From positions 26,889-90,888 of IMG/VR virus record IMGVR_UViG_3300045922_000167: a stretch of DNA of 64,000 bases; one strand, written 5' to 3'. The position numbers and the translations under genes were made by a program. Below the pieces are notes generated by a model, which saw only the letters and a program-made list of their open reading frames with translations, had not been told where the DNA came from and ran no database searches. Origin of the DNA: a virus. This document shows, one piece after another, positions 7,350 through 18,110 of the stretch (its first letter is position 1; the number at the start of each line of letters is the position of its first letter).

Positions 7350-9630
7350 ACTTAGTCGTATTTTTAATAAATTCCAAATTTAATCTATTAACTAATTCTT
7401 GCCTTGTTTCTGCATCATTTTTTTCTAAAATTTCTGTAACGTAAGGTACTCTTTGCAGTACTCCGTTTACAAATTCAAACCTAGAAAATTCTCTTTGAGA
7501 TGGAGCTATTTGTTGGTATTTCTTTATTTGCTCTAAATGCCATTTGTATAGTAGCGTAATACCAGCTGCCATTACAGCATCAAAGTTCTTTGCAGGATCT
7601 GGATCATATTTCGCTAATTCCGATAATAACTCCACAGAATAAATTTTATCACAATGATCTTCTACGTATGCTTGTAATGTAAGTAGTAACTTTTCCTTAA
7701 TTGGTGTAGTCATCGGAAGACCATAACGTTTAGATCTAATAGCTTTTGAATCAGGTACTATTGATTTAATCAATTGTACGGGTTGTACTATTAGTTTATG
7801 TAGCCAACCATGAAATTGAAATCTTTCGTACATATTATTACCTGAATCTTCATGTAATACTCTGGTATTATAGTAGTTTAATAACTTATAGACGTTGTAA
7901 TAAAATTCATCTTGAGTAGGTGGTCTATCTATATATTCTGCTACGATTGCATTTGAAAACTTATCGTCATCAATTCCAGTAGAGTTTTTAAAAATAAACA
8001 AAGCACCTTTCGAATCAGACGTAGACTGATCATAGTTATACGGATCACATCCAGCTGAATACGTAGTTAGCTCTACATTCTTTACAGGATGTTCGTACAC
8101 TTTGAACTTACCTGTACGACTAGGCACCCAGACGTATTGACCGTTTTCCTCTTTTATATCTCCACGCTGTTCCACTGAGTAATACTCCTTCAACGTCTTT
8201 AGCTTAGATAACTGTTCGTTAATCAAAGCTAAGTTGAACATATTTCCTCTCGTAATTAAGAATGCGTCTTTAGGTACGATAGGACGATACTGAAGTTCCG
8301 AGTACAATACTTTCCTATCAGGTTGCTTAGCTTTCTTTTGTCTTGTTTTTACTAAGTAGTCTAAAGCATCCTTGTAGTTTGTTACTTGAATGATAGTATT
8401 CGTTAATAGTTTATTTAACGCTTCAGTGACTATTAAACTCTTTGGGGTTAAGGCCCCAAGACTCATCCTACTATCATCATTCCTACTACTATCATTCGTA
8501 CTACTAGTACTACCATCATTCGTACTCCTATCATTCGTACTATTATCATTTGTAGTACTTAACTCATTTACGTCATTTTCGTTAGCTAACGATTCCAAAT
8601 TTTGTGCTACGTTAGGAACGTAATTTTCATCCTTAGCGTCTTTGAACTTATACTTCGTTATACATAATGAATTTACGTTATTTGACCTCTTGTTCGTTAG
8701 GAACTCCTTTAACGTTTTAGGACTTTTCTTCTGGTTTATACAATATTGTGCGGGAATGAACACACTAAATCTACCACGTTCTTCTACGTCATTCTCATCT
8801 ACAAACCTACTATCAAACGAAATCAAGTTATAATTGTCTGGATTGTAAAACATCGTACAAAAATCAGCTGTACCTTTCTCCATATCACCACCCGTACCTA
8901 TGATAATCGGTATACCTATCTGGGTATCGCCTGACATCCAACATTCCGTAGACGCATTGTAACATTCAATTAGATTTTTGTGCTTACCAGCTTCCTCAAA
9001 TATGTGAATTCTAGGACGTGTACCGTTAGCTGCCATTACGTTATTAGCGTAATTTCGTATCCAGATGATAGATTGATTACCTCTGATGGATTCTACGCCA
9101 CGTTCGTCCTTTACTTTATATCCAGATACTACCTGTTTGTTCCAATCTTCCTTTATATACTGTTGTTTTAACTCAGGCGGTAAGTCAGATAAGCCTATAC
9201 GTAACTTAGTTACAAAATTCACTAAGTCATTTTCTTCTCCAGCTGATATTAAATTCTGCTGATTCGCAAAAAACGTAAAGATATGAGCTATTTTAGCTGT
9301 CATAGAGTACGTTTTACCTGCACCACGTCCAGTAACTAAGCACATTCCTTTACGTTCTCTAGCTGCTTTAGCTACACATTCAAAAATATACCAATCTAAA
9401 TCACGTAAAGTAGGTAATCCTTTTGTCTTACCAGTCATTTTAGCGTTATCTACTTCCATCATCCAGAAGTTTGTGTAGAAAAATAAGTCTCCTGGGTAGT
9501 GGAAGCCATCTATCGTAATACCGTTCCTACAGTAATCTATTACTTCCTTCCAAAAAGGAAGATATTCAATAGATTCCTTAGGAATCTTAGGCAATCCTTT
9601 ATCCTTAAATTCTGTAAATGAATTAATCAT
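7339..9630 (-). CDS. terL: terminase large subunit (with about 110-aa low-complexity insertion)
   Basis: Walker A GRGAGKTY, Walker B IFEEAG, GTGGDM motif, RNase H-like GCDPY and NFDAV; start moved to ATG 9630 instead of TTG 9681. Confidence 0.9.
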   Translation of the reverse strand: MINSFTEFKDKGLPKIPKESIEYLPFWKEVIDYCRNGITIDGFHYPGDLFFYTNFWMMEVDNAKMTGKTKGLPTLRDLDWYIFECVAKAARERKGMCLVTGRGAGKTYSMTAKIAHIFTFFANQQNLISAGEENDLVNFVTKLRIGLSDLPPELKQQYIKEDWNKQVVSGYKVKDERGVESIRGNQSIIWIRNYANNVMAANGTRPRIHIFEEAGKHKNLIECYNASTECWMSGDTQIGIPIIIGTGGDMEKGTADFCTMFYNPDNYNLISFDSRFVDENDVEERGRFSVFIPAQYCINQKKSPKTLKEFLTNKRSNNVNSLCITKYKFKDAKDENYVPNVAQNLESLANENDVNELSTTNDNSTNDRSTNDGSTSSTNDSSRNDDSRMSLGALTPKSLIVTEALNKLLTNTIIQVTNYKDALDYLVKTRQKKAKQPDRKVLYSELQYRPIVPKDAFLITRGNMFNLALINEQLSKLKTLKEYYSVEQRGDIKEENGQYVWVPSRTGKFKVYEHPVKNVELTTYSAGCDPYNYDQSTSDSKGALFIFKNSTGIDDDKFSNAIVAEYIDRPPTQDEFYYNVYKLLNYYNTRVLHEDSGNNMYERFQFHGWLHKLIVQPVQLIKSIVPDSKAIRSKRYGLPMTTPIKEKLLLTLQAYVEDHCDKIYSVELLSELAKYDPDPAKNFDAVMAAGITLLYKWHLEQIKKYQQIAPSQREFSRFEFVNGVLQRVPYVTEILEKNDAETRQELVNRLNLEFIKNTTKYGY

Positions 9631-9752
9631 AGACGTGTTATTATTACTCAGTGGTGTATGAGAGAGGATTAAAAAAAGCAACAGCGTTCGGTTCGTTCCT
9701 TTCGTAGCTTTTTTTTCTTTTTTCCCCCCTCTAATCTACCACTGAGTACTAG

Positions 9753-10352
9753 TTACTCATTATTTTGCTTTTCTAACATTCCTAATATACCAGATTCTAT
9801 TAACGATAATTCCGCATTACCTCTAGATTTACCTGTTTTCTTATTTTCTACTTCAGCTTTAAGTTTCTTACCTAATTCTATTACTTTATCTAACTTAGTC
9901 ATTACGGTAACTACTGCATCTATGTTTTCCATAGTACATACATTATTATCTAATACCATCTGAATTTCCTCTATTTTCCTAAAGTAGGAATCTACCATTC
10001 GTTGTTCAGGTGTTACAAGTAAAGGTTTAACTATTTCACAAAAAGATTTGTACGTAGGATTCGTCAAGTACTCTTCTAATTTCTGATTATTTTGAAATAG
10101 TATCTTCTTTACTTCGTTACATCTACTTTCGTACGGGTATTTATAATACGGAGAATCTGGATCTTCAGTTAACGCAAAGTACTGAAGTAACTTATATCCA
10201 ATTTCTTTTTGATTCCAAGTAATTGGTTTAGTTATATTAACTTCGTTATCCTTTAATTCTTTAGGTAACGCCAATAACTTGTGAGTTATAGGTAGCAATC
10301 TAAGTTGATACGTTAACTCCGCTTCTTGTGTGTGATTAAATTCAAATATCAT
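9753..10352 (-). CDS. putative terminase small subunit
   Basis: Helical protein directly upstream of terL with C-term KSRGNAELS; ATG 10352 follows a TATATTTG promoter. Confidence 0.45.
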   Translation of the reverse strand: MIFEFNHTQEAELTYQLRLLPITHKLLALPKELKDNEVNITKPITWNQKEIGYKLLQYFALTEDPDSPYYKYPYESRCNEVKKILFQNNQKLEEYLTNPTYKSFCEIVKPLLVTPEQRMVDSYFRKIEEIQMVLDNNVCTMENIDAVVTVMTKLDKVIELGKKLKAEVENKKTGKSRGNAELSLIESGILGMLEKQNNE

Positions 10353-10356
10353 ATTA

Positions 10357-10364
10357 CAAATATA
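10357..10364 (-). promoter_or_regulatory. Bacteroidota-type -7 promoter element (TATATTTG) for the packaging/head operon
   Basis: Matches TAnnTTTG, 4 nt before ATG 10352 (near-leaderless transcript). Confidence 0.65.
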
Positions 10365-10385
10365 CATAAGTAAATGAATTTATGT

Positions 10386-10574
10386 ATACGTCTCCCCGTA
10401 CAGTACCGTCTTTGTATTTACACCCCCGTACTTAAATACTATTATTTACGTCCCCGTAGGGGTAGTACAAAAATTTATTTCTACGTAGGATTACGTTAGC
10501 TTACGTTCCTAACGTAGGATTTCGTAGGATTTCGTAAAAAATGTAATGTACGCAGAAAATGTAATGTACGCAGA
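10386..10574. repeat. repeat cluster at the strand-divergence point (candidate origin, pac site or genome end)
   Basis: CCCCGTA at 10394, 10424, 10452; CGTAGGATT at 10484, 10513, 10523; tandem AAAATGTAATGTACGCAG at 10538 and 10556. Confidence 0.75.
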
Positions 10575-10633
10575 CGGAGGTTGACCCCTTAACAACCTCC
10601 CCCCCGAGCTTTAGCGGTAATTAAAATTAAGGT

Positions 10634-10930
10634 ATGAACCAAGAACCACAACCAAAAGTTGTGTTCAACGTGGAAACCTTGAATAAACTTCTCGCTGTAA
10701 GCGAGAGGTATACTCAAGGCGTTCCCGTGAACGCAGAAGTGGTAATTCGTGGTAGCAGGGGGTTCAAGATGCTGTCTGCGGACGGCATTTTGGCGCTCCC
10801 AGCGCCCACAATGCCACAGGAGATGTTGATCGCAGGGGAGACCCTACCCTGCGTATTTAAGGAAATTGGGGGCACGATTCGTGCCTCCCTTGATGTAGAG
10901 GCAGCACGGGCTGCTACATCAAGCAAGTAG
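10634..10930 (+). CDS. first early gene, hypothetical protein
   Basis: 98 aa, higher GC than the genome, followed by a strong terminator. Confidence 0.7.
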   Translation: MNQEPQPKVVFNVETLNKLLAVSERYTQGVPVNAEVVIRGSRGFKMLSADGILALPAPTMPQEMLIAGETLPCVFKEIGGTIRASLDVEAARAATSSK

Positions 10931-10943
10931 CCCGTGCATTGTC

Positions 10944-10976
10944 AACCCCCCGAGCTTCGGCAAGGGGGGTTTTTAT
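10944..10976 (+). terminator. intrinsic terminator
   Basis: AACCCCCC-loop-GGGGGGTT then T tract. Confidence 0.75.
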
Positions 10977-11158
10977 TGTTAACATCATAACATGTGTTCA
11001 CCACATTCGTTATGATGTTCGTTTTCGTAGCAATTAAAATACATATCATAACATGTATTTTAATTGGCCACCAAACACACGGGATGTGTGTCGTTACTCT
11101 TACGTAAAAGAGAGTTTATGCCAAGTTCACTTAAAACTGGCAATAAAATCTACCATTA

Positions 11159-11488
11159 ATGGCTAGATATTTATTAATCATCGCTGCCATGTTGCTGATA
11201 GTTGCATGCGAGTCGGAGCACGAACTCCGCTTGCGTGAGCTGTCGGCAGTAGCTGACAAGCTGTCAAGTCTCGACAGCGCTGAGTTTCAGACTGAGATTA
11301 CAAATCTCAAGTCCGAAATGTGGCGCTACGAGGCAAAGGCGGAAAGGCTCGACTCTTTGTTCGAGCACACGCCTAATGACAGAGCCAGAGTCGAGCTTAG
11401 AGAAGAAGCTGAAAGGCTTCGTCTCGAAGCCAGCTATTCAAGGTATCTCCTTGATTTAGCTGAGACTCGCTGGGCTATTCGTCAGTAG
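11159..11488 (+). CDS. predicted lipoprotein with coiled coil
   Basis: Signal MARYLLIIAAMLLIVA-C with lipobox-like Cys; helical E/R/L-rich body. Confidence 0.65.
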   Translation: MARYLLIIAAMLLIVACESEHELRLRELSAVADKLSSLDSAEFQTEITNLKSEMWRYEAKAERLDSLFEHTPNDRARVELREEAERLRLEASYSRYLLDLAETRWAIRQ

Positions 11489-11499
11489 CGTAGCAGCGG

Positions 11500-11700
11500 A
11501 GTCCTAACTAAGCCTGAGGGATTCGGGTGAGGGTTAGGTGCAGTGAGCGACCACTGTATAAATCAGAGTCGCAACGGAGCAATGACTCCATCCAACAGCC
11601 CACCACACGTAAGTGTGGTGGTGCGATGTTGGTAGCTCTCAGTGGTAGATGAGAGAGCATAAAAAATTCGTCTCCCAGCGCTGGACTGATTTCCAGTAAT
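11500..11700 (+). ncRNA. candidate structured RNA (multi-hairpin)
   Basis: Stems 11503-08/11533-38, 11547-51/11568-72, 11592-11608/11613-32 with GTAA (GNRA) loop, 11635-40/11653-58; no ORF. Confidence 0.45.
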
Positions 11701-11719
11701 TATTTTTAATTAAAAAAAA

Positions 11720-11914
11720 ATGAAATATATCTTCAAGTCAAACTTTGGGTGCGATGACACGCACCTAACATACGAGAAAGCCCTTGAATACTTAAAAGAA
11801 TGCGGAATAGAAAAGCCGCAAATGGAATTAAAAAATTTGAGGCAAAGAAAAATAAGGTTTATAGCACTAAGCATAAGTGACTTTTTTGGTCACCTTCGCA
11901 ATATAGACGATTAG
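11720..11914 (+). CDS. hypothetical early protein
   Basis: 64 aa, strong A-rich translation-initiation region. Confidence 0.65.
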   Translation: MKYIFKSNFGCDDTHLTYEKALEYLKECGIEKPQMELKNLRQRKIRFIALSISDFFGHLRNIDD

Positions 11915-12120
11915 TAACCGTCTATGTTGCAGGGAGTATTTTAATAGTTTTCACTCTCTAAATCAAGAAAACTATTCAAGGTTGGTGAATGCCCCGCAAG
12001 GGGCTAACCTTGTAAATATCTCACCATCTTGACGTAACGTGCAAGCGTCAAGATTATAAAGCACAACCCTGTATCAGGTTTAGGGGTGTTTACTGGTACA
12101 GGGTTCATCAAAACACCCAT
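11898..12120 (+). ncRNA. candidate structured RNA (five hairpins, last one a pseudoknot)
   Basis: Stems 11898/11930, 11943/11976, 11977/12012 (GCAA loop), 12026/12054, 12065/12105; loop GGGTGTTT complementary to AAACACCC 12111-12118. Confidence 0.5.
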
Positions 12121-12140
12121 TATTTTAATTTTAAAAAAAA

Positions 12141-12419
12141 ATGGAAAAGACAATAAAACTTACTTCAGATGATTTGGTGGAGCTAATCCACCAAACCCAA
12201 ATGGACCTGCACAAACTCCATCTGGGAAAAGTCCTGAAATTGGAAATTATTCCGTTCAAACAGGCTTGCGAAGGCGAAAGGATAGCCTTCGAACCGTACA
12301 AAAGATACGGAAATTCGCTTATTTTATTGACAGAAGTAAACCAAGAAGAGGTCCACCTCACAATAAAAAAGCGAACCAAACTAATTCGCTTGGTGTACGA
12401 GCGAATTATTATAGACTAA
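12141..12419 (+). CDS. hypothetical early protein
   Basis: 92 aa, A-rich start region. Confidence 0.65.
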   Translation: MEKTIKLTSDDLVELIHQTQMDLHKLHLGKVLKLEIIPFKQACEGERIAFEPYKRYGNSLILLTEVNQEEVHLTIKKRTKLIRLVYERIIID

Positions 12420-12499
12420 AATAAAATCAAGTACGTTAATCAGCTCTCGGTACTACCGCAGAATTGATTAACGTGCTTGACGTTTATTTAATTTAACAT

Positions 12500-12703
12500 A
12501 TGCAAACCTTTAGTATAGATTTAACCAAATTCTTGAAGGAATTTGGGATTATTGAAAAAAAAGAAATTGCTGAATTCGAGAATTTCAGCAATTTCTTTTT
12601 TAACTCTATGGCTGGGGATGGTTTTTCCATCTCAAGCCAAAATGAGTTGGAGTCCCAAGTCAAAGCCCTCGTGGCGGCTTGGGCTTATCTGAAGCAACAG
12701 TAA
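12500..12703 (+). CDS. hypothetical early protein
   Basis: 67 aa, followed by a terminator. Confidence 0.6.
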   Translation: MQTFSIDLTKFLKEFGIIEKKEIAEFENFSNFFFNSMAGDGFSISSQNELESQVKALVAAWAYLKQQ

Positions 12704-12705
12704 AA

Positions 12706-12749
12706 AACTACGCTAACAGTGACAGGGTTAGCGTAGTTATATTTTTTTT
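12706..12749 (+). terminator. intrinsic terminator
   Basis: AACTACGCTAAC-loop-GTTAGCGTAGTT then T tract. Confidence 0.65.
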
Positions 12750-12755
12750 ACAGCT

Positions 12756-13067
12756 ATGAAAAAACTGATAAACCTTACTGGACATGACGTAGTCATTAAC
12801 GGTGAGATAATTGAACCTCGATTGAGATTAAGAGTAGAATTTGAAAAAACCTACGTTGACGGCTTATATGTCTTTCAAATTAAAGACAATACGCCTAAAC
12901 AACGTGAGGGTGTGTTATACATAGTTAGCGAAAAATACGCTAGTGTATTTAGGAGAAAAGATATAGTATTTCCAGTCAACCAATTACGTGACATTAACAA
13001 TAAAGTCATAGCGTGTGGGGGATTAGGATACTATAAAAGAATGAGACCAGAAAAAACATCTGGTTGA
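12756..13067 (+). CDS. NL(T)xH-family small protein, paralog 1
   Basis: INLTGH...GVLYIVS...RKD...RDINNKVIAC. Confidence 0.7.
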   Translation: MKKLINLTGHDVVINGEIIEPRLRLRVEFEKTYVDGLYVFQIKDNTPKQREGVLYIVSEKYASVFRRKDIVFPVNQLRDINNKVIACGGLGYYKRMRPEKTSG

Positions 13068-13149
13068 TTATGTTTGATAAATCTCTATCATGCAGAGATG
13101 ATAAATGTATGACGTGTCGGAACAACGAAAGAGTTCTATGTGTTATCTT

Positions 13150-13187
13150 AACCCCTCAACGTAGTGCACGGCGTTGGGGGATTTTTA
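13150..13187 (+). terminator. intrinsic terminator-like hairpin
   Basis: CCCCTCAACG-loop-CGTTGGGGG followed by ATTTTT. Confidence 0.5.
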
Positions 13188-13228
13188 ATCCTCTCTGTGC
13201 AACCACTGAGTGTTAATATCTTATTTCT

Positions 13229-13741
13229 ATGTGTGTAAAGATAAATAACAGATTAAGTTCCTACGAAGCCTACGTTAGGAACGTAAGGAACTTACTAATA
13301 GCTATACTCATCCTGTGTTCTTGTCGCCCATGCGAAAGGAACGTCAGGAACGATGTTATTCCTGTTAGTACTCAGTGTGAGATAAGAGAGATTAAAAATT
13401 TTATAGAATTAAAACATATCCTACAACGTTATGATATACCTTGTCAGGATATGTTCGTGAAAATAGCTATGTACGAAAGTGCATGGTTAAGTAGTAGTTT
13501 ACATGTTACGTACAATAATTCATTCGGTTGGTGTTATACTGAACATGAAGATATTTGTGCTAACGTGTATGGTAGCGCTCATTTTGCTTCTTACGAAAAG
13601 CAATTTGAGTTCATGGTTAAATGGGTTAACTTAAATCCTAAACGTCCCACCGAATCGTGTGAGGACTACTTTAGGAGAAGACATTACAATGTCGTTAACC
13701 CTAATTATTACAACATTTTAAGTAAAATCATAATCAATTAA
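13229..13741 (+). CDS. glucosaminidase/lysozyme-like (GH73-like) protein with N-terminal anchor
   Basis: IAMYESAWLSS...NNSFGW...FASYE...Y...NYY pattern of GH73-type muramidases; hydrophobic LLIAILILCSC segment. Confidence 0.55.
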   Translation: MCVKINNRLSSYEAYVRNVRNLLIAILILCSCRPCERNVRNDVIPVSTQCEIREIKNFIELKHILQRYDIPCQDMFVKIAMYESAWLSSSLHVTYNNSFGWCYTEHEDICANVYGSAHFASYEKQFEFMVKWVNLNPKRPTESCEDYFRRRHYNVVNPNYYNILSKIIIN

Positions 13742-13746
13742 ATAAA

Positions 13747-14085
13747 ATGGAAAATATTCACAAAATAATCAATTTAACTCCCCACGTTATAAACGTGGTG
13801 GAGGATGACAAAATTATATTAACGTTACCACCTAGCGGCACTGTCGCTAGGGTTAAAACCGAAGAGTACGTCATAGGCGTACTCAATAAAACGGTATGTA
13901 TTTATGAGATAGAATTAGAGGAAGTCTACGGACTTCCTGAACCAGAAAAGGACACATTTTACATTGTGTCCTTAATAACGGCACAAAGCTTGAAAGGCGT
14001 CAGAAATGACATTTTAGTCACGCACGGAGCAATCCGTGATAGTAACGGCAATGTAATTGGCTGCAAGGGCTTTGCTCGTGTGTAG
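13747..14085 (+). CDS. NL(T)xH-family small protein, paralog 2
   Basis: INLTPH...LPPSGTVARV...GLPEPEKDTFYIVS...RND...IRDSNGNVIGCKGF. Confidence 0.75.
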   Translation: MENIHKIINLTPHVINVVEDDKIILTLPPSGTVARVKTEEYVIGVLNKTVCIYEIELEEVYGLPEPEKDTFYIVSLITAQSLKGVRNDILVTHGAIRDSNGNVIGCKGFARV

Positions 14086-14104
14086 CCTATATATATGATG
14101 TATA

Positions 14105-14147
14105 AAATAAGCCAAAGGACTTTACGTTCTTTGGCTTATTTGTTTTT
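14105..14147 (+). terminator. intrinsic terminator
   Basis: AAATAAGCCAAAGGAC-loop-GTTCTTTGGCTTATTT plus T tract. Confidence 0.65.
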
Positions 14148-14158
14148 AAAGTGTTAAG

Positions 14159-14311
14159 ATGAAAGAAAACAAAAATAGTAAGTTTTTCAACTTACTTGTG
14201 AAAAAATACCCTAACGTACCCAGGAGTGTACTTAGGTGTATTTACGATTACTCCTATAACATAAAAGAACAATTAATCTTAATTTACAATATTTACAATG
14301 ACAGTCATTAA
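14159..14311 (+). CDS. small hypothetical protein (50 aa, below track cutoff)
   Basis: MKENKNSKFFNLLVKKYP... fills the gap and overlaps the next start. Confidence 0.45.
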   Translation: MKENKNSKFFNLLVKKYPNVPRSVLRCIYDYSYNIKEQLILIYNIYNDSH

Positions 14312-14537
14312 AAAAATTAATTTCAAAAAACAACAAATTGTAGCTTCAAACGTAAGCTACACGTTGTTTGAATACCACAACGAGGTGTGCAACATAATGG
14401 GCGCTGCTGGCTGCCCCAAAGCAGAATTACCAGCGCTTGGTGATGTTGTGTCCTACTTCGATCTATACGAACTATATGGATCGTATGACCCACAAAAATG
14501 TGCAGTAATTTTGTTAAAAAAGAAACTTTACATATAA
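14298..14537 (+). CDS. hypothetical protein
   Basis: 79 aa; stop overlaps next ATG (TAATG). Confidence 0.6.
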   Translation: MTVIKKINFKKQQIVASNVSYTLFEYHNEVCNIMGAAGCPKAELPALGDVVSYFDLYELYGSYDPQKCAVILLKKKLYI

Positions 14538-14749
14538 TGGGTCTGTATCTGTGGAATGTAAAAAAAGAAAACAATACTTACGAAACCAAGTATTGTGATC
14601 TGCGACACATAGTATCCTTAGTAAAAAAGGAACTAATCTTAAAAGCTCAAACCGTTTTAGACGGTGTGATAGTTACAGTAAAACATGAAAATGATGAAAA
14701 CGATGAAAATGATAAATCTACTCCAGCACAACATCAAAATGCTGGATGA
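14537..14749 (+). CDS. hypothetical protein
   Basis: Translationally coupled start ATG 14537 (MGLYLWNV...). Confidence 0.5.
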   Translation: MGLYLWNVKKENNTYETKYCDLRHIVSLVKKELILKAQTVLDGVIVTVKHENDENDENDKSTPAQHQNAG

Positions 14750-15038
14750 AAATCTGCAAATAAGACAAGAAATCCCATCTGAGGGATTAGCATGGGTAGA
14801 GCAACGTTATCTGATTAAAGATAACGTTGCTGGTGTTCCCGTACTTGATGTTGAGTACGGTAATATTAGCGGCCTTCCAGAGCCGCAAGATGGCGTTGTG
14901 TATATCGTTAACGGATTAGTAGCAGCTGTTGCTGCTGCTAGAGGTCGGAATGACGTGTATTCTGTACACGTTCAGAAAAATAATAAGAAGATTATCGGGG
15001 TTAAAAGCCTCGTACTACCGCAAAAACTAATATTTTAA
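14709..15038 (+). CDS. NL(T)xH-family small protein, paralog 3
   Basis: MINLLQH...IPSEGLAWV...GLPEPQDGVVYIVN...RND...KIIGVKSL; exact start (14685-14709) uncertain. Confidence 0.7.
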   Translation: MINLLQHNIKMLDENLQIRQEIPSEGLAWVEQRYLIKDNVAGVPVLDVEYGNISGLPEPQDGVVYIVNGLVAAVAAARGRNDVYSVHVQKNNKKIIGVKSLVLPQKLIF

Positions 15039-15046
15039 TTAATAAC

Positions 15047-17512
15047 ATGTTAAAGTTTAAGAGTAAAAAAGAGGCGTACGAATGGAGACGCCAATACCAG
15101 TCGATCTATTACGAGCATACTGGTAATAAATTTTATACAAAAAACCCCTTACATTCAAGGGGATACGTAGGTATAGAGGTGAGATTTTATGCTCACCATA
15201 GTCACGGATTAAATGTAAGAGGGTTATTCAAAAGTAAAATAGAGGAATGCCCTCTATTGTTTAATAACATTCCCAAAATTGAATTAGATTATAAAGATTT
15301 AGAAATATCTAAATCTTGGAACTTGGAAAGAAACCAATTAAGTATTGGTTTCAATCCAAGACAAATTATTGAATTATTAGAAAACCATCAAATAACTCGA
15401 GATGATCTCGAGTTTTTAATATTCGAGGTAGAAGTAGGAGCTGCGTTCTCTCGAGAATATAGTTTCTATTACAAGGACAAAAGTGAACAAGAATTTGAAG
15501 ATCAAGCAATCAAAGATTTTCAAAACCAATTACCAAAAGCATGTTACAACATGAAACCCATGTTGCTTGCTTTACGTGATACTGACCGTGTAGCTTTATT
15601 TAAAACCCCAGACAGAAATAAGAATGGGGAAAAGAAGAGTTATACTTATATGGAGATATGGCATAACCATTGCCATTTACTCCCTAAAGCTAGCAAAGGG
15701 GAGCTGAGACAATGTAATTATGACCAAATGAATTCTGATGAAAAAGAATTCGTAAATCATGTAAGTAATATTGTAAGTAAAACTTACAACATAGACGAAA
15801 CAAAATCGTCTATAGTAAGGTATGGTAATCGTATATTTAGTATTGCCTTCAAGGTAAATGTTGAAAGCAATCCTAACATACTAGTTCTTGCGGATGATTC
15901 TGCTATGTATAATCATCATAGCTACGATGTATCATTTAACGGTATAACTAAAGCTATGTACAGTCAACATGCTGTACTTAAAGCTGAGTTAGGTAGTCTG
16001 AAAGAACATAACAAAATTTCAGATAGTTTTATTTATGAAGCCTTAATAGGGCAAATTAAAACTAGCTGTTTTAACACACTTAGTAGAATATCTGAGTGTA
16101 AATATCAAGGAAGAGAAAATATCCTAAACTTAAAAGGATATCGTTCCATTGATTACAACCTAGCCAATCATGGAATTGCTATCCCTATGAGAGAAGACAT
16201 AAAAGACGACTTCATAGAAGAAGTCATCAAAAAAGTGTGCTTCTTTTCTTTGAGTAATAAAGCTGCTAGTACGATGTATTTAGCTCCTTACCAAAGAGAA
16301 GGTTATCAGAATTATAAAGTTATTGAAATAGAGGGCAGTAATGCTGTCTTAGGGTTTAAACATCAACCTACGCTTAACAAGAAATTGTTAGCGACAGACA
16401 ATTACAATCCTCTGGTAGACTTAAAAAACAGCGGTATGCTGTTTGACCTGGAGTATAATATAAGTTATTTACCAGATCTATGGTCAATAACTCATTATAT
16501 TATAAACTACTTGGTGAAACCGATATCTTTAAAACATTTTAAGAAAATGTTAAAAAAGGTATCCAACCAATTCAACATAACTAATGTTGATATAATTAAA
16601 GAATTCAACATTGGTAATGTTAATGCAGGTTTAATGTACAAAGCAATGTATTGGCTTTGTATGTTAGAAATACTAAAAGATCAAGACATTAAACCCATAA
16701 GTGTAAGCAGGCTAATAAATGACGTTGAATATTTTGAAGACGTCATAAATTTACCTCGTAATTCAAGCAATTTAGAAATTTATGCTCTAAGTGAAACAAG
16801 TTCAGAAAAACGCAAACAGTTTATTAAAGCTGCGTTTGAAAAAGAACAAGAATCACTTAAAGCAGAGTATGAAAAGTATATTGTACATGCTAGAATCAAA
16901 ATCTTCAACGAAGTTGTAAGACTTCAAGCAAAGAATGATTATAATAGCAGGTATAATGATCCAGTCCTAATTCTTTCCAACGGTAAGAATTTAGAAAAGT
17001 CAAACAATAAGTACAAAATAACCGAAGAAATACAAAAAGCCTATCAGGTGTATTTAGATAAATTTGGTTATTTATTGGAAGGAGAGTACGATATAGAAAC
17101 TTTAATTAATACCCACTACACAAACACTCACAATCCGCTATTAGACCATAACGAGTCTTATACGGATTTAAGTGAAGGTATAAGGTTTCATATTGACTAT
17201 GAGAACAAACGTGCGGTAACATCTAAAGGCATTATCGTAACGTTTGACAAGTTAAGGGAATACATCAAAAGTTTTTCTCAAAACCAGCCTATCGTAACAA
17301 CGTATGGCGTAGGTAAGATTGAGAACAACTATATTGCTATTGGATGCCATTTAATTCATTCCAGCCAAATAAAACATCTGTACGACAACATTCCTGACGT
17401 ACAAAACGTAGAGATCGACTGGAGTTTGTATGAAACGAAGTTCCCTATTCCTACTCTAATGTCTCTTGAAGAGTACATAGAGAGGAATAGTAAATACGCT
17501 AAATTGTTATAG
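15047..17512 (+). CDS. large hypothetical protein
   Basis: 821-aa ORF; C-term VTSKGIIV...IAIGCHLI motif seen in uncharacterised phage proteins. Confidence 0.7.
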   Translation: MLKFKSKKEAYEWRRQYQSIYYEHTGNKFYTKNPLHSRGYVGIEVRFYAHHSHGLNVRGLFKSKIEECPLLFNNIPKIELDYKDLEISKSWNLERNQLSIGFNPRQIIELLENHQITRDDLEFLIFEVEVGAAFSREYSFYYKDKSEQEFEDQAIKDFQNQLPKACYNMKPMLLALRDTDRVALFKTPDRNKNGEKKSYTYMEIWHNHCHLLPKASKGELRQCNYDQMNSDEKEFVNHVSNIVSKTYNIDETKSSIVRYGNRIFSIAFKVNVESNPNILVLADDSAMYNHHSYDVSFNGITKAMYSQHAVLKAELGSLKEHNKISDSFIYEALIGQIKTSCFNTLSRISECKYQGRENILNLKGYRSIDYNLANHGIAIPMREDIKDDFIEEVIKKVCFFSLSNKAASTMYLAPYQREGYQNYKVIEIEGSNAVLGFKHQPTLNKKLLATDNYNPLVDLKNSGMLFDLEYNISYLPDLWSITHYIINYLVKPISLKHFKKMLKKVSNQFNITNVDIIKEFNIGNVNAGLMYKAMYWLCMLEILKDQDIKPISVSRLINDVEYFEDVINLPRNSSNLEIYALSETSSEKRKQFIKAAFEKEQESLKAEYEKYIVHARIKIFNEVVRLQAKNDYNSRYNDPVLILSNGKNLEKSNNKYKITEEIQKAYQVYLDKFGYLLEGEYDIETLINTHYTNTHNPLLDHNESYTDLSEGIRFHIDYENKRAVTSKGIIVTFDKLREYIKSFSQNQPIVTTYGVGKIENNYIAIGCHLIHSSQIKHLYDNIPDVQNVEIDWSLYETKFPIPTLMSLEEYIERNSKYAKLL

Positions 17513-17564
17513 GGTTGTAGTCCTGAGCATGACTTTAAAAGGCTCATTTTTTTATTTTAACAAC

Positions 17565-18110
17565 ATGAAGCATTTAATTTTCCTCCTCTTACTCATCTCA
17601 CTGAGTTCTTGCGGAGTATTAGAAAAACGTTACTATAAAAGCTTAGTAACGTACGACAATTGCCTAAAGGTAGTTAATCCAGTTGTACTGGATATACCTT
17701 GTAAGGATACGATTATTACGCTGCCTACGTACAGTACGTTAATTAACGTACCTTTAAGAGATACGTTTATTGATAATACAATATGGTATCAATTACTAGA
17801 TTCTATTTTTACTTACAAAGATAGCTTAACTGAAGCTAAGTTATTGTATGATAAAACTACTAATAAGTTTAATCTATATGTACGACAACAGGAAAAAGCA
17901 TTTAAGGTAAAAGTAGCTGATGAATTAGCGTTATTAGACCAATACAACAGATTAAAACGTAACTATCAAATTTTATTAAACGATAGGAACGATTTAATCG
18001 CTCAACAAGCAAAAAAAGATGAAAAAAAGCTAACTAATTTAATTTATATAGCTGCTTTCATCTTGTCTTTGCTGATTATAGCTTTTATAACGTTTTACTT
18101 AAAACAATGA
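17565..18110 (+). CDS. lipoprotein with C-terminal TM helix (u-spanin-like architecture)
   Basis: MKHLIFLLLLISLSS-C lipobox; coiled coil; C-term LIYIAAFILSLLIIAFITFYL. Confidence 0.55.
   Translation: MKHLIFLLLLISLSSCGVLEKRYYKSLVTYDNCLKVVNPVVLDIPCKDTIITLPTYSTLINVPLRDTFIDNTIWYQLLDSIFTYKDSLTEAKLLYDKTTNKFNLYVRQQEKAFKVKVADELALLDQYNRLKRNYQILLNDRNDLIAQQAKKDEKKLTNLIYIAAFILSLLIIAFITFYLKQ

Follow-up and report, generated by a model that had tools for sequence, protein, structure and literature searches.

Three divergent Crn4-family paralogues in the genome of a crAss-like phage

Three Crn4-like genes in one phage genome

The DNA considered here, referred to as the window, is a stretch of 64,000 nucleotides (bases 26889-90888) of the 90,888-bp IMG/VR virus record IMGVR_UViG_3300045922_000167, which carries direct terminal repeats, and its subject is a set of three small genes, P1, P2 and P3, whose products are assigned by sequence and predicted structure to the Crn4 ring nucleases. 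The phage genes include those for a major head protein, a large portal, a large terminase, a family-A DNA polymerase and helicases. By its terminase, which shares 28-33% identity with crAss-like phage terminases, the ~91-kb phage is crAss-like; terminases of Flavobacterium and Cellulophaga phages are related to it too. DNA of the phage was detected in metagenomes of hot springs and microbial mats. No close relatives turned up among GenBank phages (megablast, 20 kb) or in scans of IMG/VR and the JGI metagenomes, and IMG/VR scans with P1, P2, P3 and a neighbouring 821-residue protein returned no near relatives except for one 35% match to P3. The three genes are:

P1, 12756-13067, + strand: 103 amino acids, Crn4-family paralogue
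P2, 13747-14085, + strand: 112 amino acids, canonical Crn4b-type paralogue by sequence
P3, 14685 or 14709 to 15038, + strand: 109-117 amino acids depending on the start, paralogue with a predicted Crn4 fold

All three open reading frames (ORFs) lie, on the + strand, where the initial annotation had placed them. The start of P3 is ambiguous in that several in-frame ATGs occur between 14685 and 14709; the usual N-terminus of the family favours a start at 14694-14709, and residues of P3 are numbered here from 14709. The proteins can be aligned end to end with identities of 26-31%, and pairwise BLASTP gives E-values of 3e-10 for P2 and P3, 3e-6 for P1 and P2 and 3e-3 for P1 and P3. Common to them are an N-terminal I-N-L-x-x-H motif (INLTGH in P1, INLTPH in P2, INLLQH in P3), the proline of the GLPEP region, Y-I-V (YIVS in P1 and P2, YIVN in P3) and R-x-D. 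GLPEP itself, which the initial annotation had put in brackets within a shared motif, is restricted to P2 and P3, P1 having NTPKQ instead; the absence of a C-terminal Arg-Asp from the third ORF, which had likewise been pointed out, is borne out by the sequence VQK of P3 as opposed to LRD in P1 and IRD in P2. A profile built from homologues outside the window recognizes P2, P3 and P1 with E-values of 4e-40, 1e-23 and 2e-15. Out of 507 six-frame ORFs in the complete genome the best-scoring other one reaches an E-value of 2, and the copy number in the 90,888-bp genome is exactly three. The likeness is far above chance and by sequence the three are true paralogues. In a tree of the family, monophyly of P1-P3 is not rejected by the approximately unbiased test (p-AU 0.525), and long branches are involved (4.1 for P1 and 2.9 for P3, the median being 0.84).

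Crn4 was first described in 2025 (Chi et al. 2025, PMC12830947), as a small homodimer with swapped arms and a fold not seen before, in which β-strand pairs and one short helix are accompanied by an extended β-hairpin arm. The conserved residues of Crn4a are T13, H15 and R112, and H17 and R103 are the Crn4b counterparts; the activity of Crn4a is lost in H15A and R112A, whereas T13A retains some, and the His and Arg of one active site are contributed by different subunits (PMC12830947). Cleavage of cyclic oligoadenylates (cOA) is metal-independent and gives linear products with a 2',3'-cyclic phosphate, and whereas Crn4a cleaves the cyclic tri-, tetra- and hexaadenylates cA3, cA4 and cA6, the shorter-armed Crn4b cleaves cA3 and cA4 only (PMC12830947).

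In phmmer searches of the sequences in the PDB, P2 matches Crn4b (9r7b, E 1.8e-9), Crn4a (9sma, E 9e-4) and the H15A mutant of Crn4a (E 0.011), P1 matches Crn4b (9r7b, E 8e-8) and P3 matches Crn4b (9r7b, E 0.042); the membership of P3 is secured by the E-value of 1e-23 obtained with the external family profile. The AlphaFold2 monomer models of P2 and P3 are confident, with a predicted local distance difference test score (pLDDT) of 95.4 and 95.9, and Foldseek aligns them to 9r7b with E 5e-11 and a template modelling (TM) score of 0.81 for P2, and E 1.2e-6 and TM 0.71 for P3. Crn4 entries are the only significant matches of these two models in the PDB, the next having E-values near 1, and the predicted strands of the hairpin are residues 35-46 and 50-61 in P2 and 29-40 and 43-54 in P3. 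For P1 the ESM-Atlas model has a pLDDT of 0.82, and its neighbours are viral clusters of about 100 residues and TIR-SAVED or TIR-SAVED-Crn4 clusters (TM 0.72). No Pfam family matches any of the three at E <= 1, and their PHROG matches are limited to phrog_30542 and phrog_21731, both listed as of unknown function. By sequence and modelled fold P1, P2 and P3 are phage-borne members of the Crn4 ring-nuclease family, of the Crn4b type. The resemblance to Crn4 pointed out in the initial annotation is thereby upheld by sequence (9r7b and the family profile) as well as by fold, and the features it had cited (small size, a catalytic N-terminal His, a C-terminal Arg, homologues in mobile elements) agree with the published account (PMC12830947). 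Neither AcrIII-1/DUF1874 nor Acb1, Acb2 or Tad gave a match to P1-P3 among the Pfam and PHROG profiles.

The closest known system is Crn4b of a Hyphomicrobiales bacterium (PDB 9r7b), which resembles P1-P3 in size (114-128 vs 103-117 amino acids), P2 and P3 in fold, and with which they have in common the N-terminal NLTPH-type motif with the catalytic His as well as R-x-D; the VRD-type motif of its tip Arg has a counterpart in P1 and P2. Its short-arm subgroup is moreover the one already published from phages and plasmids. The identity to Crn4b is however just 27-29%, P1-P3 are phage-borne, away from a CRISPR locus and three to a genome, the arm of P1 is about 14 residues shorter and P3 is without the catalytic Arg and Thr. 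None of the three genes is associated with a type III CRISPR locus or effector; they sit in a terminal-repeat phage genome and, being carried by a phage, fit the phage and plasmid group of Crn4b rather than the CRISPR-locus group. Crn4a of Actinomyces procaprae (PDB 9sma, 9qs9) belongs to the same family, has the same trans arrangement of His and Arg and gives weaker, yet significant, matches, but its hairpin is about 10 residues longer, it cleaves cA6 and it is associated with type III-D loci that have Csm6-2/CorA. AcrIII-1/Crn2 (DUF1874) is a viral enzyme, small, dimeric and metal-independent, in which a His acts as general acid, and the role proposed below for P1-P3 is like its own, although it is cA4-specific and unrelated to them in fold and sequence. 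Finally, the Crn4 domain of TSR1 (TIR-SAVED-Crn4, bioRxiv 10.64898/2026.09.16.751991) dimerizes and degrades cA3, and the Atlas model of P1 neighbours TIR-SAVED clusters, but in TSR1 the domain serves to self-limit a host effector whereas P1-P3 are stand-alone and viral.

Catalytic residues, arm length and tandem fusions

At positions that hardly vary in the family the three proteins differ considerably, and the His-to-Pro distance, used here as a measure of the arm, varies as well:

P1: Thr8, His10, Gly for the Pro of NLTPH, the Arg of VAR, the Ser of IVS, R-x-D (RKD), tip Arg (LRD); His-to-Pro distance 37
P2: Thr11, His13, Arg35 (VAR), Ser75 (IVS), Arg86 and Asp88, tip Arg97; His-to-Pro distance 51
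P3: Leu for the Thr, His7, Gln for the Pro, Trp for the Arg, Asn for the Ser, Arg80 and Asp82, Gln89; His-to-Pro distance 50

His10, His13 and His7 all align with the invariant His column of the family. All near-invariant residues are present in P2, which is up to 50% identical to homologues outside the window, and by sequence it is a canonical Crn4b-type protein and most likely, its model included, the conventional enzyme of the trio. P1 has neither the PSGTVAR nor the GLPEP motif, but every catalytic residue is in place and it is probably active. At 37, its His-to-Pro distance is the shortest in the sample, the 259 other domains ranging from 44 to 75 with a median of 51; this sample is biased to high scorers, and P1-like viral clusters of 102-103 residues are present in the ESM Atlas. 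By this distance the arm or lid part of P1 is about 14 residues shorter. Since the shorter arm goes together with absence of cA6 cleavage in Crn4b as compared to Crn4a, we infer by analogy that P1 may have a different preference for ring size.

In P3 five near-invariant residues are replaced (Thr by Leu, Pro by Gln, Arg by Trp in GLAWV, Ser by Asn and the tip Arg by Gln), while the predicted fold, the full-length arm, the His, GLPEP and Arg80/Asp82 are retained. The loop at the tip of its hairpin is two residues shorter and rich in lysine (Lys90, Lys93, Lys94), HMMER and MAFFT alike place Gln89 in the column of the tip Arg, and a word search found no homologue beyond P3 itself. As judged from these alignments P3 is a non-standard member of the family, unable to use the canonical Arg.

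How unusual such a protein is can be seen from its viral relatives. In 80 of 80 IMG/VR loci the homologue is single-copy within 6 kb on either side, and the 20 GenBank phage records in which a homologue was found have one copy each. Fifty viral records with Crn4 were searched in full, 20 of which are at least 90% complete; 49 hold one copy and one holds two, both canonical. Neither the Thr nor the His varies in the 80 viral single copies, and the tip residue is Arg in 76, Lys in four and non-basic in none. The four with Lys (L036, L047, L072 and L081, reading IKD or VKS) are otherwise canonical, which suggests that Lys is able to serve at this position. Thr, His and both Arg are furthermore retained in all 161 single-domain proteins among the 171 best search proteins, the conserved Thr being present in 180 of 182 surveyed domains and in 80 of the 80 viral ones. 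The family is also far commoner than published: an exhaustive profile search gave 12,014 clusters at 50% identity (E <= 1e-3), and one motif alone is found in at least 223 IMG/VR contigs, as against 11 phages in the literature. A motif scan of genome contigs gave 60 matches, of which 21 are true homologues, single-copy at every locus and belonging to Bacillota, bacteria of the candidate phyla radiation (CPR), archaea and others. Bacteroidota matches in that scan were rejected as chance occurrences of the motif.

The lysines bear on the notion that all three proteins might be active homodimers with different substrate ranges, a tip-loop Lys standing in for the missing Arg of P3. Lys occurs in the Arg column of four of the 80 viral homologues, Lys90 directly follows Gln89 with Lys93 and Lys94 nearby, and arm length may tune the ring size that is cut, given that long-armed Crn4a cuts cA6 and shorter-armed Crn4b does not, the arm of P1 being shorter still. 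However, both alignments put Gln, and not Lys, in the Arg column, and P3 has also lost the Thr, the Pro and the equivalents of Arg35 and Ser75, each of which is retained in at least 172 of 182 domains, and we consider an active P3 homodimer possible but somewhat unlikely.

A different perspective on P3 is offered by tandem Crn4-Crn4 proteins, which make up 10 of the 150 best representatives (P0027, P0028, P0029, P0030, P0031, P0034, P0042, P0069, P0080 and P0118, all unannotated and from outside the window). In all 10 one domain is without a catalytic residue, and the losses are complementary. In P0029, P0031, P0034 and P0069 domain 1 has kept the His and lost both Arg, while domain 2 has both Arg but an Arg in place of the His; in P0028, P0030, P0042 and P0118 the single loss is the His of one domain; and P0027, a very recent duplication, has the His of domain 1 but a Leu at the tip Arg. 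Since His and Arg act in trans, nine of the 10 fusions retain exactly one complete site, and P0080 retains none. Loss of His or Arg is thus seen in 10 of 10 fusions vs none of 161 single-domain proteins (Fisher's test, ~2e-16), although some of the fusions are related and may represent 6-7 independent lineages. The clusters of P0029 and P0069 have 35 and 18 members on contigs of up to 302 kb and are therefore not assembly artefacts; in these two groups an extra N-terminal domain of ~230-260 residues without a Pfam match was also observed. The published account of Crn4 makes no mention of tandem forms, heterodimers or paralogues (PMC12830947). A testable structural rule emerges, namely that single-domain Crn4 always retains the site while tandem fusions almost always retain exactly one.

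The fusions resemble P3 in their one-sided catalytic loss, most directly domain 1 of P0027 with its His present and Leu for the tip Arg, but differ in that their domains are covalently joined, whereas P3 is a separate gene ~620 nucleotides downstream of P2. Since the defect of P3 is of the same kind, only carried by a separate gene, a heterodimer is a reasonable hypothesis: together with P2 or P1, P3 might form an asymmetric dimer in which the site made up of the P3 His and the Arg of the partner would be intact and the other site crippled. By analogy with the fusions a role as heterodimer partner is our preferred reading of P3, though tentative and taken by itself rather unlikely, and the more specific version, in which P3 would be the unlinked equivalent of a degenerate fusion half and form a one-site nuclease with P2 or P1, is unlikely as well. 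The different specificities or heterodimers considered in the initial annotation may draw indirect support from the truncated arm of P1, the remodelled site of P3 and the one-site pattern of the natural fusions.

P0080, having lost both sites, lends itself to yet another explanation, namely that P3 is a non-catalytic sponge, a homodimer enclosing cOA without cutting it and so sequestering the signal alongside the two nucleases. P3 is without the Arg whose mutation in R112A abolishes activity of Crn4a and without the conserved Thr, and still has the fold, the arm, the His and the adenine-stacking Arg80. Stoichiometric sequestration does however seem redundant beside two catalytic relatives, and the changes of Arg35 to Trp and Ser75 to Asn affect near-invariant positions that may be part of the ligand surface, making a sponge an unlikely, if conceivable, role.

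Genomic setting and strain variation

P1-P3 belong to the beginning of the + strand block leading into the DNA polymerase and the helicases; the divergent intergenic region, which divides the replication block from the terminase-side genes, is 2-4.5 kb away. The initial annotation had spoken of an early region; the place at the head of the replication-strand block stands, and early expression is plausible from position only. The features surrounding the three genes are:

12706-12745, + strand: hairpin with T-run, terminator-like, directly upstream of P1 and bounding the P1 cassette
13153-13180, + strand: terminator-like hairpin after P1, 10 pairs with T-run
13229-13741, + strand: glucosaminidase-like ORF of 170 amino acids with a lipoprotein-like N-terminus, not of the Crn4 family
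14105-14141, + strand: terminator-like hairpin after P2, 16 pairs with T-run
15047-17512: ORF of 821 amino acids, 8 nucleotides after P3 and before the DNA polymerase

Each of P1-P3 forms a cassette of its own between terminator-like hairpins. In 9600-17600 the number of such hairpins is roughly five times that in shuffled sequence (22 vs 4.6 +/- 1.9), and many of them fall between small early ORFs. The ORF at 13229-13741 matches PF01832 (E 2.9e-7, 31.6 bits with a cut-off of 30.2) and ends 5 nucleotides before P2, with which it is probably co-transcribed; a cell-wall hydrolase-like ORF between P1 and P2 is oddly placed for a presumed early region. No Pfam or PHROG match was found for the 821-residue ORF, nor any relative in IMG/VR or the JGI metagenomes by pattern search, and the small neighbouring ORFs gave no Pfam family and no PHROG match either.

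The GC content of P2 and P3 is 41%, that of the genome 31.5%. Two small ORFs at 10634-10930 and 11159-11488 have GC contents of 52% and 50% and no family match, and are probably recently acquired cassettes; contigs from three other runs jump over the former (joint 10618->10919). Strain contigs also carry 16 other letters in place of the hairpin upstream of P1 (joint 12694->12745) and, between P2 and P3, 218 other letters in place of a 224-nucleotide stretch at 14290-14515. Contigs of two runs of this habitat have 706 other letters instead of the P2 slot (13721-14092) and retain P3 and the 821-residue gene, and a 30-mer from the end of this replacement was absent from the viral and metagenome contigs searched. 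One short contig may join across P1, weakly so, having only 30 letters on one side. Other runs retain all three genes, and P3 occurs in contigs from each of the four further runs compared. Hairpin bounds, atypical GC content and cassette swaps are typical hallmarks of accessory or counter-defence genes.

Such flux could also be taken to mean that P2 alone matters, P1 and P3 having no distinct function and being duplicates in drift or remnants of cassette exchange, a notion to which the very long branches of P1 (4.1) and P3 (2.9 vs the median of 0.84) would lend themselves. But the ORFs of P1 and P3 are intact and their models confident (AlphaFold2 for P3, ESM-Atlas with its pLDDT of 0.82 for P1), every catalytic residue is retained in P1, and P3 persists in contigs from each of the four further runs, including those in which the P2 slot has been replaced. 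Redundancy or decay is for these reasons improbable.

As regards possible control signals, a scan for sigma-70-type promoters was at chance level (27 vs 27.9 expected), which is unsurprising if a Bacteroidota-type or phage RNA polymerase system is used. At 10480-10580 in the divergent intergenic region, possibly an origin or a regulatory region, short direct repeats were noted, GTAGGATTTC twice and AAATGTAATGTACGCAGA twice, and strain contigs carry extra repeat units there. At 11690-11722 and 12117-12143, before the ORFs at 11720 and 12141, an AT-rich leader was furthermore observed in almost the same form, TTAATT(T)TAAAAAAAA and then ATG; it may be a shared promoter or translation signal.

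Possible functions of the three proteins

Crn4b homologues have been reported from 11 of ~28,000 phages and suggested, as a proposal, to be anti-CRISPR and possibly anti-CBASS proteins (PMC12830947), the latter directed against the cyclic-oligonucleotide-based antiphage signalling system (CBASS). In keeping with this, the set of P1, P2 and P3 probably serves in counter-defence, being made early and removing the cOA of type III CRISPR or of cA3-type CBASS. The proteins would be produced early in infection, as their position suggests, dimerize by way of their arms and enclose the cyclic oligoadenylate, which would be cleaved through in-line attack by a 2'-OH with the His as general acid and the Arg stabilizing the phosphate. 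cA3 and cA4, and perhaps cA6, made by Cas10 or by cA3-type CBASS could in this manner be removed before effectors are activated. A SMODS cyclase was not found in the phage genome and there is no sign of phage-internal signalling, while a SAVED search of the phage gave no match, the control genomes being likewise unmatched.

Counter-defence can also be set against the possibility that these proteins process linear oligoadenylates, RNA 3' ends or other nucleotides for phage metabolism. Crn4a does slowly cut a poly(A) 12-mer in vitro, and the family is far larger than its CRISPR-linked set, but the authors themselves doubt the physiological role of poly(A) cleavage (PMC12830947), the fold encloses cyclic ligands and the genes are found among variable accessory cassettes and not in a metabolic operon. 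A metabolic role is accordingly very improbable.

A number of points nevertheless weigh against the counter-defence reading or parts of it. The ~12,000 clusters go far beyond the CRISPR-linked set and leave room for other roles. P3 may still be active, with Lys90 adjacent to an Arg column in which four of 80 viral homologues have Lys, and there are no close relatives of P3 by which to gauge the conservation of its odd residues. The replacement of the P2 slot in strains where P3 stays opposes an obligate pair of P2 and P3, unless the replacement encodes a Crn4. Early expression is plausible from the position of the genes, activity is ascribed to phage Crn4 by kinship with Crn4a and Crn4b, and type III CRISPR or cA3-CBASS as the target in the host is suggested by analogy. 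Another complication is that a cA3-guarded type II Panoptes is triggered by Crn4 activity (PMC13577387), and one might speculate that variants which bind or cut differently could matter to phages for this reason.

New here are the three-member Crn4 set in one phage genome, the occurrence of a minimal-arm and an Arg-less variant side by side in a crAss-like phage, and the one-site rule in tandem fusions. If P3 does act as an unlinked fusion half, Crn4 would repeatedly evolve one-site pseudo-dimers, possibly for ligands without twofold symmetry such as cA3 or for controlled single cuts, and three genes would provide the phage with homo- and heterodimers covering several signals. In any event the genome holds a natural panel of canonical, minimal-arm and Arg-less Crn4, from which it could be learned how the substrate range depends on arm length and on the composite His-Arg site, and whether phages bring nucleases, heterodimers or sponges together against immunity based on cyclic oligoadenylates.

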